64,000 nt of DNA from the NCBI GenBank assembly GCA_964016885.1, contig OZ024748.1:24552001-24616000 (forward strand), read 5' to 3'. The position numbers were made by a program, and so were the translations under genes. The stretch is from Eledone cirrhosa (lineage: Eukaryota). A model generated the notes under the pieces. The model was given only the letters and a program-made list of their open reading frames with translations, was not told the DNA's origin and ran no database searches. The number at the start of each line of letters is the position of its first letter. Within the stretch, counting starts at the first letter, position 1. Positions 16,030 through 63,400 of the stretch are shown in pieces.

Positions 16030-17277
16030 ATGGCCTTGTGTCCATCTCACCGTGTCAGCCCACACATCCAAAGGGTACTGAAACACTACCAGAACAGTGC
16101 AATTAGAAGTCTGTGCGGTCCAGATGCTATTGTAGGGTCATCTGACCCCTACCAGACCAGCCTGGCTGCAGGCGACGACGGTGGAGGGCAGCTAGCTTCT
16201 ATATCACCCACCTTGGACGATCTGTATACGGCGGCGGGACAACATCAACAACAACAGCAACACAACCTCCACCACCAGGGCGAGTTTTTTCCTCCTTCGG
16301 CGACTATTACTACTAATAATAGTAGTAGTAGTGGTGGTAGTTGTATTGCTGTTATTTCTAGTAATTCGTCTAATACTACTACTACCAACAACAGCAACCA
16401 CTACCACCACAACGAGAAAGACAGAAACAGTAGTAGTAGTAGTATTAGTAGTAGTAACAGCAGCAAAATCTACAACAGCAACAAGAAGAACAACAGCAGC
16501 AGTAGCGGTGGCGGCGTCGTCGGCGGCGATAGAGGAGCTGGAAGTACCAGTGGGAGTAATAGAAGCAGCCGTGCTAGTTCTCCTCTCTCCCCACCACAAG
16601 CCACCGCCGGTGAGGCTGGTGTTGTACCCGCGGCCACGTCGTCGTCTACCCCGACTGTGGTTGTGTCTGGAATCAGACCTCCGTCCAGGCCTTCTGGCTT
16701 TGACGACGAAGAGGTCTTCATATATCGAACCCATCGGAATAAGGCCATGAGTGGTGTTGTCGCTACTGCTTCGTCGGCAAACGTCGTCAACCCCACAAGT
16801 AGTAGTAGCAGTGCTAGTGGTAGTAGTAGTAGTAGTAACAGCACCAAGCTACCTTCAGAAAAAGGTTTGGAATTTGATCCATTCACATCTCCACCTCCTT
16901 ATCCCATCCAACAGATGCCTGTCTTTACACCTTACGATTCGTATGCGGAACGTTCGGAAACTATATTAGAAAATGAAAGGATTGCTTGTTTCATTATCGG
17001 TGGCGAAAAACGCTTATGTTTACCCCAAATCCTCAATTCAGTCCTCAGACATTTCAACCTGACTCAAATCAACTCCGTCTGTGACGAACTTCATATCTTC
17101 TGTGCCCGATGTAGCCCTGAACAACTGGAAACATTCGTTGCAGCTGGGATTTTACCATGCAGGACGGCCAGTTGTGGACTCATCACCAAAACAGATGCCG
17201 AAAGACTCTGCCATGCGCTTCTTTACAAACGTACGGCCGCCAAACCAGTTGACCCACCATCACCCAGCAGCTTCAAG
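16030..17277 (+). CDS. SKI: Ski/Sno family Smad co-repressor, first coding exon (416 codons: R-Smad-binding motif, low-complexity insert, Dachshund-homology domain)
   Basis: N-terminal [19 protein letters not shown] resembles vertebrate Ski [49 protein letters not shown]...[18 protein letters not shown] is the Ski/Sno DHD. Phase-0 donor AAG|GTAAAG at 17277/17278. Confidence 0.96.
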
Positions 17278-18128: not shown

Positions 18129-18328
18129 NNNNNNNNNNNNNNNNNNNNNNNNNNNNNNNNNNNNNNNNNNNNNNNNNNNNNNNNNNNNNNNNNNNNNNNN
18201 NNNNNNNNNNNNNNNNNNNNNNNNNNNNNNNNNNNNNNNNNNNNNNNNNNNNNNNNNNNNNNNNNNNNNNNNNNNNNNNNNNNNNNNNNNNNNNNNNNNN
18301 NNNNNNNNNNNNNNNNNNNNNNNNNNNN
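18129..18328. other. Assembly gap (200 N)
   Basis: Direct reading. Confidence 1.
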
Positions 18329-44153: not shown

Positions 44154-47332
<3,179 letters not shown>

Positions 47333-47954
47333 ACTGTAAGTTTACTTTATGTATGCTGTGTGGTAATTTGTGTATGTATTTAGCTATTAAAAGACCCTCT
47401 TTAGTTAGTTTCAACATTTTTTTCATAAGAATTCTATATTCTTTATATTGTAACCTTTTAACATATTTCTAATGAAAAACACTGCCTATCATTTTCAAAG
47501 CATTTTGAAAATAATCAAGAATTTGGAGGGAATTAGTAATATAATTAACTTTCTTATTATTAAACTTATGTTTGGAACATAACCTGACAAAGATTTTTAC
47601 ATAAAATTATGACTATTAGAAAAATGTAAATACGAGTGGTTTCAGGTGGGTTACCGAAGACATCAATCTGTTGTCTGATAACACACATACGTGTAACAAT
47701 TTACGGAGTATATATAAACATTTACAAAATGTTTATTTAAAACATCACATTCGGGAAGAGTGGGATTAACATTTATTGCATAACACTAGGATCGTTAATA
47801 TTTGACTATTTCAATCAAATTAAATCGTATCCGACTATTTGAAAAATCATATGTAGACAAGAAATTTTCAAAGGCTGTGTTATGCAATACATATTATTCT
47901 CACTCTTCTGGAATGTGATGTTTTAAATAATAATTGTGTGTGTATGTGGAGAGA

Positions 47955-48017
<63 letters not shown>

Positions 48018-48135
48018 AGAGACTGCGGTGCTGAGACCGGGAGACCACTAATCAAGGGAGTACGCAATGCATGGGGAGATGCAGAGTGGGTATAGAGTTA
48101 GGTAAATTCCCGACCGCAGGGCCACACGGTCAGGA

Positions 48136-48270
<135 letters not shown>

Positions 48271-48508
48271 AGAGAGATGTGTGTGTATATATAGTAGTTT
48301 CAATGTTGTATGTCTATGTTGCGAGTTCCACTGCAGTGTGGTAGCCACCTGCTGCCAAAAGAGCAGCTGCTGATGCATTATTGATTGCACTTGCTGCACA
48401 TTCCTTAGAGACGGATGCATGACAACTTGAAGATTGTGTCTTCAGCTGAAATTAAATTTAAAAAAAAAAGGGGAGATATTGGATTTTTCTAAAAAAAATT
48501 GTCCCTTT

Positions 48509-48539
<31 letters not shown>

Positions 48540-49238
48540 ACGAGCGCTCATATCGGCTTTCTTGTTTGTGTGCCTTCATGCATGCAATCTATGTGTTCAT
48601 GCATGATGTGTGTGTGCGTGCGTGTATATGTGTGTACGAGCATGGTGTGTATTCATACATGCATATGGGTGTGCGTGTGTATATCCATGTGTGAGTATGT
48701 GCATGTATGTATGAGTACGCGCGTGTGTGTGTGTGTGTGTGTGCATATACTTGCATATAGTTGTGCGTGTATATGTGCATGTGTGAATGTATGAATGTGT
48801 GTGCATGAATGCGTGCATGTGCATATGAGTGTGTTTGTTCATACATGCATGTGTATGTGTGCGCGTATTCTTTCGGGCTCTCTGCATGTGAATAGGAATT
48901 AGTAGGTTCTATGTGTGTGTGTGTCGGTACCTATGTGTAAGGTGTGCGCGCGCGTTTCTATATATGATACTGGTGTATCTGTATGTATGTAAATGTGTGC
49001 GTATGTGTTTGTATGTAGATACATTGTGTGTGTGTTTGGTATAAGTATATGTGTATGTATTCCTATGTAGGTAAATGTATATGCATGTGTTGCACGTAGA
49101 GATATATGTGGGCATTTCTATGTGTGTTAGTAGATAAGAGCATGCGTGTGTGTGTGTAAGAACATTGTGTGAGGGTGTTCGTCTACTTATATTTTATGCC
49201 TGAATATGTATGTATGCGCGCGCGCGCACACGCACGCA

Positions 49239-49337
<99 letters not shown>

Positions 49338-49610
49338 TCACAAACACAAACGTGAGTGTGTGTGTGTCTATGTACGTATATATGCCTGTATGTTATGCCT
49401 GTATGTATGAAAATGTATCAGTACAAGGGAACAGACACAAGACTGCCTATGTTTTTAGAAGTATCTGTACATCTTTGAGTCCATATATGTGCATGGTTGT
49501 TTCCGTCAGATAGTATTGTATGGAATGTAAATATGTGTGTATGTGTGTTTGAGTGTGTGTATGGGTGCATATATACATACGCATCTCTCTCTCTATATAT
49601 AAATACATAT

Positions 49611-49709
<99 letters not shown>

Positions 49710-50027
49710 AAAAAAAAAACAACATATACGAACACAAACGCGCGCGCATATGAGAGAGGGGATAGGAAGTAGTTTATTGCGTAGACGAAGCCTTTTAGAT
49801 AACATTAACAGGCTGATAACATTACCCCCCCCCCTCCCCCTGCCCATTGGAATTTAGACTTCATTAACTGTATAGAATTACGCATTATTAGACTTTAGGA
49901 AAGTGTTAAATATTTTCACTGTGCTGCTTACTTCTGGATCGAACTTACAGAATGCTGCTTGAAATGTAAAAAATTCGATCTCTCTCTATCTCTCTCCGTA
50001 GAAATTTCCACCGAAAACAAATGTGGT

Positions 50028-50091
<64 letters not shown>

Positions 50092-50198
50092 TGATGATGA
50101 TCCTGGTGAAACTCCAGTGTAAAAAGTCACATTACTAAACCATAAAAATCTACTTCGGTATTGAGTACTCATTCTCACATGTCAAAATCAGATAGCTC

Positions 50199-50282
<84 letters not shown>

Positions 50283-50579
50283 TAAAACAAAATTTAATAG
50301 AGAAATGGCCCTTTTATGATGATCTCCTTCGAATGAAACAGTTCTAGTCCCGCAGAAGCCATTTCTATATTAAATTTTCTTGTGTATACTCTATTAATGT
50401 ATTGAGTACCTTACCTGCTGTGGTTACCCCCGTTTGAACCCGGGGTTTGTGTGTGCGTGTGCGTGTGCGTGCGCGTGCATATATTCAGATTAATTTTAGT
50501 TAATATATATTGAGTACTCATTTAAACCCAGTAATTTTTTATTTTAATTAACATCTGACATATATATCCCCCTTTCTTC

Positions 50580-50740
50580 ATATCGCCATTGCCCCCCCCC
50601 CCCCATCGCCATTACCACCACTACTACCCCTTCATATCGCCATTGCCACCACTACCACCCCTCATATCGTCATTACCCCCCCCCCCCTCTCCTACATATC
50701 GCCATTACCCCCCCCCCCCACATATCGCCATTACCACCAC
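50580..50740. repeat. Degenerate repeat of (c)atatcgccattacc + C-run units
   Basis: About 6 copies. Confidence 0.8.
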
Positions 50741-50936
50741 TGTACCAAGTTATTCATGTGTCTATATAAGTAGTACGGCGCAGTCTAAGTCTAGACAGTT
50801 TGCAGGAAGTTATGGTAAGAATCTATCTCACCCCACACCTCTGACGCCATTAACTGCTGCTGATGGATGATCATTACTCCTACTACCACCACTACTGCTG
50901 CTGTGAGGCCACTACGGTTGCTGCTAATCTTATCAT

Positions 50937-50969
<33 letters not shown>

Positions 50970-51292
50970 ACTACTACTACTACCACCACCACCACTACTA
51001 TTGATGTTCACTTCTATTGCTGCTGTTGCCCTTTCTTTCGCTTTCATCCCCACCTTCTCCAAACTCCATCCCTCTTTCCCCTCTGCTTTCTCCCCTCCCC
51101 CACACACACTCTCTCTCATTGACGTTAGCTTCTCTTAGTACATACTCTTAACACACACACAAACACAATCAAATCACCACATCATACATACAAACTACTA
51201 CAATCACAATACATACACACACAAAGACAATGCATACAAACATTACAGAGAACAGTTATATAAATACAAAAGTTTACACAATACATGCGCAT

Positions 51293-51364
<72 letters not shown>

Positions 51365-54335: not shown

Positions 54336-55373
54336 TCTTCTCGCTCGGAGAATATAACATTCCCGAATTTAAATCACAAACTGGTGCCATACAAAACTGT
54401 TCCCAGATGAGAGTGAATGAGGAAGGGACCAATTCTGTCTAGTGCCGTGTGTAAAGACAGAAGGCAAGGGAGGACAGGTCAATGTCCTGCCACTAGAAAT
54501 AGCAGCAGTTCAAACGACCAAAATGTTATCTCTACCAGAAATGTTTTTACCCAGTATATTTCAATGCCCAAACCCTCTTTTCAAATGTAAAAATGTACAA
54601 TGTGTTCTTTCCTAACTATATATTCCTACTGCATTGTACCGGTTTGCTGAAACTTATCAATTCCCCTTATTAACTATATTACTTTATCATATACACCAAG
54701 TCTGTCATTAGATCAAAGTTTTACATTTAAATCTAGTGTGTGTGTGTGCACATACATACGTACATATAAATACACGTGCAAGTATTGCACCAAGAAAAAT
54801 ATAAACAGTGGCGAGAAAGATGAGAAATTTATTTGTTTTAACATATGTTTCCATGTCTATTATAATTGTCTACATATGTTGACTACAATATATATTGTTC
54901 AATCGTATGCAACACTTAATTATCTATCACACTTCATCAGAAAGCCTATAATTGTAGAAATGACTATTCACTACATGGTAGTATATTTAGTCTGACCCAG
55001 TAGCATATTTGTTACTCTGGACTTTCTCCGACATGTGGTCAGTTCCCCCAAAAACATTAAATAAACTACTACATTCAGCTATGGCTTTTTCCTCTTTAAC
55101 TAATAGATGTCTGTATATATATTTGTGTGTGTATATTTATATATAGCCAGTTGGTGAGTAATGCTAATTACTACAGGTGGTTGTGTATATATTGTGATTC
55201 TAATTTCCATTTTGTCTGATGAGCAAATTGATCCTTGAGTTAATTTGGTTATAACATATTAAAACTCAGGGCTTTATCATTTGTGAAATGTGTTATGTAT
55301 GATTACAAATAGACATTAAACTGACACTTTTATTTCTCTTTTTTTAATACTTGTATTTATTTATTTATTTATT

Positions 55374-55440
<67 letters not shown>

Positions 55441-55819
55441 CACTTTGTTTTCACATGTTTGTGTTTATTTCAGCTGAGTTCTAGTTACAGCTAGAAACTG
55501 TTTTGTGTTCAGATGTTCATTTATGTATTTAATGTGTTTAATTATATAGTTTCACTGGCATCTCTCTATTTCTTTCTATCTTCTTTATTTCTCTTTCTCT
55601 TTTGAGCTTTGCTCTTCAACTTCTTTCTCTTTTTCATTCCCCACTTAACCTTCCAATTGAAACCACAACCACCAACACTATCACCACCACCACCATCCTT
55701 TCACTCTATCATATAACATTCTAAATGTTTTCTTTTTCTTTTTCTTTTTCATCACTATGTCACGTTATCCCCTATTAAAACTGGATTCTTTATACCATTT
55801 GGACATCTGCTGAACCAAA

Positions 55820-56106
55820 TAACCAACTACTGGATTGACTAAACACCAAAACTATTGGATCAACTAATTGATTGATCAACTAAACACCAACTATTGGATC
55901 AACTAAACATCAAAACTACTGGATCAACTAATTGATTGATCGATCAACTAAACACCAAATCTACTGGATCAACTAAACATCAAAACTACTGGATCAATCA
56001 ATTAATTGATTGATCAACTAAACACCAACTATTGGATCAACTAAACACCAACTACTGGAACAACTAATTGGCTGATCAACTAAACATCAACTATTGAATT
56101 GGATCA
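55820..56106. repeat. Degenerate minisatellite (actattggatcaactaaacacca / caactaattgattgat)
   Basis: About 12 imperfect units, none containing AG on the + strand. Confidence 0.85.
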
Positions 56107-56221
56107 ATATAATCACTGCTCAACTTTCTACTGAATGAACCACCTATGGCTTAATTAATTGATTCACTGGTTAACCAATCAATCTTACAATCTTGCATTC
56201 CATCTTGTCCACACGCACACG

Positions 56222-56300
<79 letters not shown>

Positions 56301-56301
56301 G

Positions 56302-56595
56302 GTCTATCACGAGTGTTTTGGCAAATGCAAAGGAATTATCCAGCCAGATCGCTATCATACACCGGACGCAGAGTGCATCTACTGCACTGAATGCCACGCA
56401 CTTTTTAACCCACAACAGTTTGTTTGTCACTCACACACTCGAATGGAGAACCGTATATGCCACTGGGGCTTTGATTCAGCTCATTGGCGGAACTATTTGA
56501 TGCTTGCCAAAGATCAAGAAAACCTAGAAAAATGCCAAGACATCATTGATCAGATAAAGAACAAGTTTGATGGATGTAAGACTAAACGAAAACAG
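56302..56595 (+). CDS. SKI: Ski/Sno second coding exon (98 codons, SAND-like Smad4-binding domain)
   Basis: AG|GTC...CAG|GTAAGT. Translates VYHECFGKCKGIIQPDRYHTPDAECIYCTECHALFNPQQFVCHSHTRMENRICHWGFDSAHWRNYLMLAKDQENLEKCQDIIDQIKNKFDGCKTKRKQ, retaining the CxxC/HxH zinc ligands and CHWGF. Not in the ORF track. Confidence 0.96.
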
Positions 56596-57016
56596 GTAAG
56601 TGTTGGTTTATTCCATTGATTCTTCTTTAATCTAGTGATGTTGTTTTTTTGTTGTCATATATATATATATATATATTTTAATACCATTCTTCATGTGTCA
56701 GCAGCAGTAGCATCATCATCATCATCATTGTTTAGCTCTTGTTTTCCGTTAGCAAGAGTTGGACTGGACATGTCATCACAGACCGGACGGTACTCAAGAT
56801 GCTGTAAATTTCCCATATTTACATATTGGTTAAGCACCACCACCACCACCACCACCACCATTTTACATCTGCTTTCCACATTGGAATGGGTTGGATGGAT
56901 TGTCATTACGAGACCACAGAGGTTGAAGCAGCCTCATCTTCCTCATATGTTCCATATTTGGCATGGTCTTTCTATGACCTGATGTCTAACCTAACACCAG
57001 CCATCTTATATATATA

Positions 57017-58676: not shown

Positions 58677-58756
<80 letters not shown>

Positions 58757-60548: not shown

Positions 60549-62479
60549 CATCATCATCATCATCATCAACGTTTAACGTCCGTGTTCCACGCTTGCATGG
60601 GTTTGGACGGGGGTAGTCCCACTTGAGGCAAGAGTGATTGTCTTGCTCGCATAGGACTGTCTGGCAGGTTTTCTACAGTTGGATGCCCTTCCTAACACCA
60701 ACCACATTTACAGTGTGGGTCTGGGAGGTTTTTACCGTGTTGCCTACACGGCCACATTACAGCGTGGACTGTGTGTTTTTTTGTCGTGACACCTACACGA
60801 TCTCATTTGTTTCGGCCTGGATGGCGCGGCACCAACATAACTTTACATAGAACGGGGTGGTGTGGATGGGGTGGGGGTGGCGGCGGGAGGGGTGTATTTT
60901 GTTAGAGATGCCTACTGGCAAGGCGGGTCTTCTCTGTTACTGAGTACCGCCAAAGGTCACGGTCCAGTGACATTGTCTTGGAGAGGTGTAAGTGTGTGAG
61001 GTCGGAGTTTATCAGCTCATCCCATGTTTTTCTAGGTCTGCCTATTCCGTGGCTACCGTCTATCTTTATTGCCCTGCACTTTGTAATACAGCTATCGACT
61101 TTCATGCGCATCACGTGTCCATACCAACGCAGCCTTCTCTCGAGTAAACAACATCTGATCCCTCTTATCTCTAATTTTTTCCTTAGTTCGTTTATGCTTT
61201 GCCGTTCACGTATATTACTGTTACACATCCAGCGGAGCATGCAAGCTTCGTTCCTCTCTAGTCTGCGTATATCCTCTGCACACAATGCCCAGGTCTCACT
61301 ACCATGCAACATTGCTGTTCGTATGCAGGCATCGTACAACCTGCCTTTCATTTTTAGGGAGAACCCTTTAGCAGCTAATAGTGGTATAAGCTCTCTGAAC
61401 TTTTTCCAACCAGTTCTGACTCTAGCTACAGTACTTTCAGAGCACCCTCCCCCACTGCTGATTTTATCGCCCAGGTAACGGAAGCTGTCCACTATTTCTA
61501 TAAAACCCTCTGCGCAATTGAAAGAGCTAGTATTTTGTGGGCACTTGCTGCTACTTATTGCACCAGAACACCGGCCACATGTAAAGTCTATGTTCTTAGT
61601 TAGCTTACCTGTGATCCCACTACATCTTTTATGCACCCATACTTTGCATTTAGGACATAAGATGGAGTTTCTACCTACGCCTTTCCTACATACCGAGCAC
61701 GACCATTTCCCAGAAGGGACCGCCGCCTTGTTTTCTTTCCTACAAACTAGAACTTTGGTCTTAGCCAGGTTAATTTTAAGTCCTTTTGACTCTAGGCCGT
61801 GCTTCCATGTTTGGAATTTCTTCTCTAGCTCGGCCATTGATTCCGCTATGAGTGTCAGGTCGTCTGCGTATAGGAGTTCCCATGGGCAGCCTGTCTTGAA
61901 CTCCTCTGTTATAGCCTGAAGGGCAATAATAAATAGTAGGGGGCTGAGAACAGAGCCCTGATGGACGCCAACTTTTACGCTAAACTCTTCACTATATTCG
62001 TTGTTAATTCTAACCTTGCTGACTGTTTCTTTATACATGGCTTGTATAGCCCTCACAAGCCATTCGTCAACGCCTAGTTTTCTAAGAGCCCACCAGATAA
62101 TGGAGCGGGGGACTCTGTCGAAGGCTTTCTCCAGGTCGACAAAAGCTAAGTAGAGGGGTTTACCTTTAGCTAGGTACTTCTCCTGTAGTTGTCGTACTAT
62201 GAAAAGAGCGTCTGTGGTGCTTTTGCCTGACACAAACCCGAACTGCATTTCATCTAGATCAATTCTCTCTCTGATTAGTTGCGCTATTACTTTTTCCGTG
62301 ACCTTCATGACCTGGTCGATTAATTTAATGCCTCTATAGTTACTCCTATCTAGGGCGTCTCCTTTACCCTTATAACAGTTAACGATGATGCTGCTATGCC
62401 AGTCCTTCGGAACAACCCCATTCTGTACGACTTGGTTAACTATGCGGGTGACCATGGTGTGTCCCACCGTGCCAGATGC

Positions 62480-62481
<2 letters not shown>
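60548..62481 (-). mobile_element. 5'-truncated young RTE-clade LINE: open RT ORF (60902-62481), 3' UTR and (ATG)n tail
   Basis: KGKGD..NYRGIKL, QFGF, FVDLEKAFD, GVHQGSVLSPLLF, YADD (61859-61870), FRYLG, RRLRWYGHV, GRPRKTW with no stops; tail ...cggacgttaaacgttgatgatgatg. Confidence 0.95.

Positions 62482-63400
<919 letters not shown>

Follow-up and report, generated by a model that had tools for sequence, protein, structure and literature searches.

Ski exon 2 and its acceptor

The window, that is, the whole stretch of 64,000 nucleotides of Eledone cirrhosa DNA that was analysed, contains two exons of a Ski gene:

16030 to 17277, + strand: coding part of Ski exon 1, carrying the Ski_Sno/DHD domain (PF02437, Pfam), located by tblastn with O. 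vulgaris Ski and ending in ...SSFK
56302 to 56595, + strand: Ski exon 2, 294 nt, phase 0-0, carrying the SMAD4-binding domain (PF08782, Pfam) and starting with VYHECF

Both features of the Ski/Sno family are present, the DHD in exon 1 being followed by the SMAD4-binding domain in exon 2. The donor of exon 1 is in phase 0 (AAG/GTAAAG), that of exon 2 is the consensus CAG/GTAAGT, and exon 3 is located further downstream. The locus is single-copy and lies on a 60-Mb contig of a 3.0-Gb assembly; the length of intron 1 is approximate because the intron contains an assembly gap of 200 N (18129-18328). Inside intron 2 there is an open frame of 561 codons on the minus strand (60905-62587), the translation of which resembles a non-LTR retroelement reverse transcriptase. 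Exon 2 is symmetric (phase 0-0), and its skipping would remove the SMAD4-binding domain in frame; no exon-2-skipped isoform was found among 28 cluster members and seven search hits.

A sequence-only reading of the window had named the AG at 56300-01 as the only acceptor that restores the Ski frame. The conserved peptide is indeed obtained from 56300-01 alone, but the AGs at 56312, 55472, 55493 and 55511 are also in frame arithmetically. The exon 2 protein matches O. vulgaris Ski at 98%, and the junction SSFK/VYHECF, with nothing inserted, is found in Ski of O. vulgaris, O. sinensis, O. bimaculoides and Argonauta. In addition, a contig from the same species (X4) has no mismatch over 56309-56595 and continues from exon 2 into exon 3, indicating that it represents spliced RNA; it holds a further 855 letters upstream of the match and does not overrun the start of the stretch at 56302. 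Since (CA)30 should be impassable to an assembly built on 31-mers, and since the sole AG in 55607-56308 is that at 56300-01, the acceptor would be 56300-01. Were the upstream letters exon 1, they would place the beginning of the contig at 16430, where a GTA repeat begins, which fits. From the contig, partly by this reasoning, and from the conserved cephalopod peptide, we conclude that the AG at 56300-01 is genuinely used. That the site is an assembly artefact, or that another acceptor is used, seems highly improbable: the CA tract is seen in the assembly alone and the identity of X4 upstream of exon 2 was deduced, but all 36 sampled words of 56271-56650 were present in three runs (possibly of the source sample, and hence not independent), and neither the match of X4 to exon 2, spliced to exon 3, nor the single-copy state of the locus would be expected of an artefact.

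The intron between 17277 and 56302, now 39 kb, was likely gained in coleoids, judging from sequence comparison. In 23 of 27 non-cephalopod Ski loci (some on contigs that are possibly transcript-derived), the frame upstream of exon 2 reads through into the DHD; three of the remaining loci are open but diverged and one is a distant match. One octopus protein and one squid-like protein read from SFK into intron-like sequence. Together, the read-through and these two proteins suggest a coleoid gain at AG/GT. Among the 27 metagenome matches, none was a cephalopod genomic locus for the orthologous intron end. The genomic contigs X5, X11 and X13, from three other organisms, end 49, 31 and 30 nt upstream of exon 2, which is at most a weak hint that a repeat is present there in other octopods.

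The AG-free zone and the bare acceptor

The intron's 3' end is composed largely of repeats:

55607 to 56299, + strand: AG-free zone, 693 nt
55822 to 56185, + strand: AG-free minisatellite, with its core at 55822-56093 and a decayed copy at 56094-56185 that includes TTAAC 56171
56191 to 56209, + strand: weak pyrimidine-rich stretch (2.8 bits, 27th percentile)
56210 to 56269, + strand: (CA)30 with three CG interruptions, the 3' arm of a predicted helix
56270 to 56301, + strand: (AAT)10 and then the acceptor AG, with TAATAAT copies resembling branch points at -27 to -18

The extent of the zone was confirmed exactly, AGs being present at 55605-06 and 56300-01 and absent from the 693 nt between them. 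G, which had been described as common there, accounts for only 54 of the 693 nt (7.8%), versus 14.7% across the intron. The minisatellite is present as the sequence-only reading had noted, and its decayed copy (score 43, reached by 2 of 500 shuffles) extends to about 56185. Repeats with AG-free units make up 66% of the zone; in the 549 nt from a pyrimidine tract at 55728-55750 to the AG, they account for 454. Four longer AG-free runs occur within the same window, every one in low-complexity arrays listed by TRF, and 39 of 142,620 AG-to-AG intervals (1.26 Mb, both strands) are at least 693 nt long. With repeats masked, the unmasked AG-free stretch of the zone was the longest among 28,093 intervals, although this figure is inflated by the decayed repeat that remained unmasked. 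Among other arrays with an AG-free consensus, 8 of 27 were also without any AG. Outside the repeats, the zone has 11 non-GG G positions, none preceded by A, an outcome expected about 1% of the time at the intron rate of 0.34. The 693-nt zone is therefore uncommon, yet less so than its length implies; it is rare, not unique.

Several other properties of the zone were noted. A 24-nt perfect palindrome, GATCAATCAATTAATTGATTGATC, lies at 55992-56015 within the minisatellite and is predicted to form a hairpin. The spacer 55751-56301, folded alone, gave a z of -3.35 and a centroid that was almost unpaired. The minisatellite was rejected as a dispersed family, its genome matches being only 66% and low-complexity, and 55440-55830 was rejected as a mobile insertion, its matches being short and low-complexity only.

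For comparison, acceptors were sampled from dynein genes in 13 gene regions, with junctions called by protein alignment without tract scoring; 313 of 335 calls were kept, each having no rival call within 100 nt and a margin of at least 5. These acceptors ended in CAG in 194 cases, TAG in 99 and AAG in 20. Their exclusion zones had a median of 40 nt; 21 were at least 100 nt, two were at least 500 nt and none reached 693 nt. The two longest, of 625 nt (G000:C9 at ~34555 kb; C9b, 84374) and 609 nt (G000:C7 at ~40287 kb; C7c, 46351), were both AG-free minisatellites at true acceptors with a normal tract. The dynein introns are short (median 980 nt), and in the 43 of 313 that are at least 3 kb, the longest zone was 161 nt. 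Counts of exclusion zones of at least 100 nt, first versus second, were 10 and 12 of 281, with no excess, and the probability that a zone of at least 40 nt extends to at least 150 nt was 0.025 at acceptors versus 0.033 at random intronic AGs, with similar decay beyond 40 nt. A second set drew on 30 loci of myosin genes and on 8 of 30 of channel genes and gave 37 scored acceptors, which were picked by profile score and are thus tract-biased. In the dynein set we also observed, at G000:C19:6751272-6762301, two identical inverted sets of dynein C-terminal exons (L007 and L008), representing either a recent inverted duplication or an assembly artefact.

The Ski acceptor differs from all of these. 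Its pyrimidine fraction at -33 to -4 is 0.30, versus a minimum of 0.43 in the 313 acceptors, and its longest pyrimidine run is 1, which bears out the earlier remark that no pyrimidine tract adjoins the AG; such a tract-less AG is unique among the sampled acceptors. CA and AAU repeats are rich in purines and poorly suited as a substrate for U2AF65. By an acceptor profile covering positions -45 to -4 (trained on 311 acceptors and ranked on the same dynein set), the bare Ski acceptor scored 3.4 bits, and 7 of the 313 true acceptors scored no higher. In-silico removal of 56213-56299 yielded, as had been foreseen, an ordinary though modest acceptor (7.3 bits, above 18% of the 313), and the stretch 56191-56209 is a possible relic of an earlier proximal tract. 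A microsatellite lay within 50 nt of the exon at 16 of the 313 acceptors (the closest at 7 nt) but within 5 nt at none, suggesting that the last ~15 nt are normally protected, which is not so in Ski. None of the 37 myosin or channel acceptors abuts a microsatellite either. The suggestion that repeat-rich cephalopod introns are generally spliced in this way thus fails in these samples, where 0 of 313 and 0 of 37 acceptors abut a microsatellite and long zones are not enriched; the Ski acceptor is an outlier, a rare site and not the normal splicing mode of this genome. The sample of 313 is, however, too small to detect a rate like that estimated for distant-branch-point exons in human, 1/160-1/400 (0.25-0.6%), in the available sections of PMC1431707.

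Candidate branch points for exon 2

Candidate branch points were located at -24, -127, -577 and -977. The nearest lies in (AAT)10 itself, where TAATAAT copies in tandem would act as branch points at -27 to -18; the acceptor would then be proximal and tract-independent, with the strong donor carrying a weak acceptor by exon definition and the upstream features being incidental repeat DNA. TAATAAT can form four Watson-Crick pairs and one GU pair with U2, level with the best candidate, TAA[CT] and ATAAT peak at -40 to -20 of the genome's acceptors, and 7 of 313 true acceptors score no more than the 3.4 bits of the site; moreover, a microsatellite in place of the tract is known in human APOA2 (via the review PMC5622345, in the part available). 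However, the pyrimidine content is the lowest in the sample, and the AG-free zone, a tract of 14.3 bits and the mirrored repeat arms described below would all have to be chance, so that we regard this explanation as unlikely.

The nearer site that the sequence-only reading had named, TTAAC at 56171-75 (or TTAAT at 56151-59) with the tract 56191-56209 and a scan of 127-147 nt over the microsatellites, appears very unlikely. With the microsatellites collapsed it would become a plausible ordinary acceptor of 7.3 bits at canonical distance, but TTAAC sits in the decayed minisatellite copy, forms three Watson-Crick and two GU pairs with U2, is followed by a weak tract (2.8 bits, 27th percentile) and offers no explanation for about 550 nt of the AG-free zone. 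A strong pyrimidine tract is required for AG-independent splicing.

Further upstream, the pyrimidine tracts that had been pointed out at 55621-55650 and 55728-55750 are both present, and the second is joined to a branch-like motif:

55719 to 55750, + strand: candidate distant branch point TTCTAAA (A55724) with a pure, U-rich pyrimidine tract of 23 nt at 55728-55750

The best unit of the zone by the profile was 55708-55749, the 14.3 bits of which outscore 99.7% of 311 true acceptors and were attained, among half-overlapping windows, in 2 of 1226 of dynein introns and in 2 of 115 of Ski intron sequence. In dynein introns, the frequency of pure U-rich tracts of at least 20 nt is 0.037 per kb; of 144 AG-free runs of at least 300 nt, 6 contain one. 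Within the zone there are only two chances for an AG upstream of A55724, so that the cassette is effectively at the 5' end of the zone, and the sequence downstream is AG-free for 550 nt. CTAA, TAAA and TCTA are enriched at -45 to -15 of the genome's acceptors, the motif at A55724 forms four Watson-Crick pairs with U2 and is moderate (A at +1), and the tract is predicted to be single-stranded (0.91). The tract in turn consists of a short (T5C) repeat and has T-rich surroundings with two more tracts of 12.3 bits. In the available sections of Gooding et al. 2006 (PMC1431707), true distant branch points combine a strong tract with a branch motif near the 5' end of the zone, whereas AG-free zones made of repeats are described as false leads.

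We give about an even chance, from sequence features, to the proposal that the branch point of exon 2 lies far upstream (~580 nt, near A55724), the first downstream AG then being taken and the spacer being filled by repeats. U2AF65 and U2 would bind the remote cassette, the consensus donor CAG/GTAAGT may help via exon definition, and the first splicing step would proceed without need of an AG; the spliceosome would then take the first AG downstream of the branch point, and the spacer would be free to gain repeats so long as these were AG-free. A distant branch point would account jointly for why the zone is so long, for the orphan tract and for the lost protection of the last 30 nt, and exon 2 as a distant-branch-point exon inflated by tandem repeats is the best explanation we have, as apt to prove right as wrong. 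In this respect, the idea in the sequence-only reading that the branch point is distant and that repeats expanded before the AG holds as the best single reading when placed at the upstream cassette 55728-55750, but not at TTAAC 56171. Several observations speak against it: repeats supply 66% of the zone and 8 of 27 arrays with an AG-free consensus are likewise AG-free; 2 of 313 normal acceptors have zones of more than 600 nt with no sign of a remote branch point; the branch motif is moderate and the tract is a (T5C) repeat in a T-rich region; no exon-2-skipped isoform was found among the members and hits searched; and the predicted 60-bp UG:CA helix would cut across the scanning path and reduce it to ~197 nt. 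If a stable stem forms between branch point and AG, it can block the second splicing step.

The predicted helix, the UG arm of which had been overlooked in the sequence-only reading together with the branch-like motif and tract at its base, offers another explanation:

55189 to 55349, + strand: old dispersed repeat, a transposon-like relic 70-88% identical to at least 21 other copies, the end of which supplies CTGAC and the tract
55321 to 55345, + strand: CTGAC (A55324) as candidate branch point, with a pyrimidine tract of 19 nt, both at the base of the predicted helix
55355 to 55438, + strand: 5' helix arm, (ATTT)n and then (TG)31, with (UG)31 at 55376-55438, about 770 nt upstream of the CA tract
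55471 to 55606, + strand: eight AGs in the predicted loop, including the decoy acceptors CAG 55473 (10.6 bits) and GAG 55606 (7.4 bits)
58680 to 58754, + strand: (TG)37 in intron 2, which could instead pair with the CA tract just as strongly (-121.8 kcal/mol) and would then loop out exon 2

According to the folding models, (UG)31 may pair with (CA)30, weakly extended by (AUUU)n:(AAU)n, and bring the CTGAC branch point and its tract near the AG; in that case the AG-free zone would represent a relic or serve as a fallback route. The helix (-124 kcal/mol) appears in both the minimum-energy and the centroid structures, with ~60 expected pairs at 37 and at 12 C, and the inverted repeat, with 82% complementarity, reaches 92 nt and stops at the AG. 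The effective path from A55324 to the AG had a median of 34 nt (range 3-39) in 200 sampled structures, versus 977 nt linear. An ATT/ATTT 5' flank is found in only 2 of 76 (TG) arrays of at least 12 units, which are the two arms of the helix, and a tract of at least 9 bits at the upstream arm alone. CTGAC forms four Watson-Crick pairs and one GU pair with U2, and its unit, joined in silico to the real G/GT, scored 13.0 bits (82nd percentile). The tract of this repeat copy scored 10.2 bits, versus a mean of 4.7, SD of 2.0 and maximum of 7.9 in 13 alignable other copies, of which one has CTRAY (8 of the 21 were not alignable at the end). Precedents for bridging by a helix exist in yeast (PMC3239191) and fish (PMC4691745), as described in the sections available.

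On the other side, CA arrays commonly have a TG array in the 800 nt upstream of them (10 of 60, and 10 of 39 for the Ski region); eight unpaired CA arrays (45398-51362), transcribed earlier, could capture the UG arm first (-129 kcal/mol); the AU extension contributes only a few kcal/mol; the AG-free zone and the 14.3-bit tract are left unexplained; and the features of the helix were found by exploration, post hoc. We therefore hold it possible, though doubtful, that a microsatellite zipper delivers the transposon-end branch point and tract, 980 nt upstream, across 780 nt to the bare AG, leaving an older or fallback remote tract in the loop; the pairing of (UG)31 with (CA)30 as the means of splicing is likewise tentative. 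Pairing of (TG)37 with the CA tract could loop out exon 2, resulting in in-frame loss of the SMAD4-binding domain. The remote branch point at A55724 was ranked above the helix because its features were predicted beforehand by published criteria. The two are compatible, and one could have remained as a relic of the other or act as its fallback.

Some further observations concern the same repeats. The eight long (CA)n arrays at 45398-51362 are all on the sense strand, with only one short (TG)n among them, and the dispersed repeat of ~160 nt ends in TTAATA, often followed by TA, TG or CA microsatellites. An insertion splitting an ancestral CTGAC...AATAG acceptor was considered and dropped, the unit being the end of the dispersed repeat. 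An Rfam match to SCARNA7 on the minus strand over the UG repeat (27.8 bits versus a threshold of 65) was taken as chance, and one to SNORD45 was below threshold.

Ski exon 2 compared with known systems

The Ski site provides a natural test of whether a metazoan spliceosome finds an AG distant from the branch point by scanning or by RNA structure, and shows one way for an essential exon to survive in a microsatellite-rich genome. Its value is limited to one locus, with no sign in the samples of a genome-wide mechanism. If the zipper is true, microsatellite length, temperature and rival UG/CA arrays could control inclusion of the SMAD4-binding exon. Among the matches listed, no paper dealt with distant branch points in cephalopods or with a UG/CA helix that links branch point and AG. 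The words "invertebrate", "mollusc" and "octopus" are absent from the main text of PMC4691745, the 24-genome supplementary table of which may bear on novelty.

The fish (AC)m-(GT)n introns described in the available part of Lin et al. 2016 (PMC4691745) share with Ski complementary dinucleotide repeats, a predicted long helix and a tract-less acceptor. However, the polarity is reversed, GT being upstream and AC downstream in Ski, and, with 38 kb between donor and upstream arm, the helix would bridge branch point to AG, whereas the fish helix bridges donor to acceptor. No AC repeat of the fish type is present in the first 60 nt of the intron (the criterion being at most 40 nt from the donor) and no GT repeat lies within 40 nt of the acceptor, which carries CA and AAT; Ski was therefore rejected as a fish-type AC-GT intron. 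The yeast COF1 and UBC13 stems (Gahura et al. 2011, PMC3239191, sections available) are closer to the helix model, in which the stem likewise would shorten the distance from branch point to AG and hide intervening AGs. Unlike them, the Ski stem would be made of microsatellites, span ~950 nt, also bridge the tract and lie in a 39-kb metazoan intron. The (GT)16 of human APOA2 intron 2 and the (TG)m of CFTR (via PMC5622345, in part) resemble the Ski acceptor in having a microsatellite at the position of the tract, with possible length effects, but those repeats are UG-rich, whereas those of Ski are CA and AAU.

Distant-branch-point exons are the nearest parallel to the preferred reading, with a remote branch point at A55724. 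As described in the available sections of PMC1431707, exons of this family, such as PTB exon 11 (the branch point of which is predicted at -566 in Fugu) and GABBR1 exon 23, have a long AG-free zone, a 5' tract with a branch-like motif, and none at the AG. Against the threshold of at least 150 nt for the AG exclusion zone, Ski has 693 nt; its strong tract (55728-55750, 14.3 bits) is accompanied by a moderate branch motif, and the conventional position has no tract, but TAATAAT motifs at -27 to -18. Human spacers of this kind are reported as unstructured (PMC3239191, in part), whereas the Ski spacer is 83% tandem repeat, is predicted to be crossed by a 60-bp helix and ends in a microsatellite that abuts the AG; Ski exon 2 further differs in being apparently constitutive, in encoding a core domain and in belonging to a cephalopod. 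Ski exon 2 thus has the sequence characters of the distant-branch-point family in part, and the chances that it works like such an exon are, in our estimate, evenly balanced.
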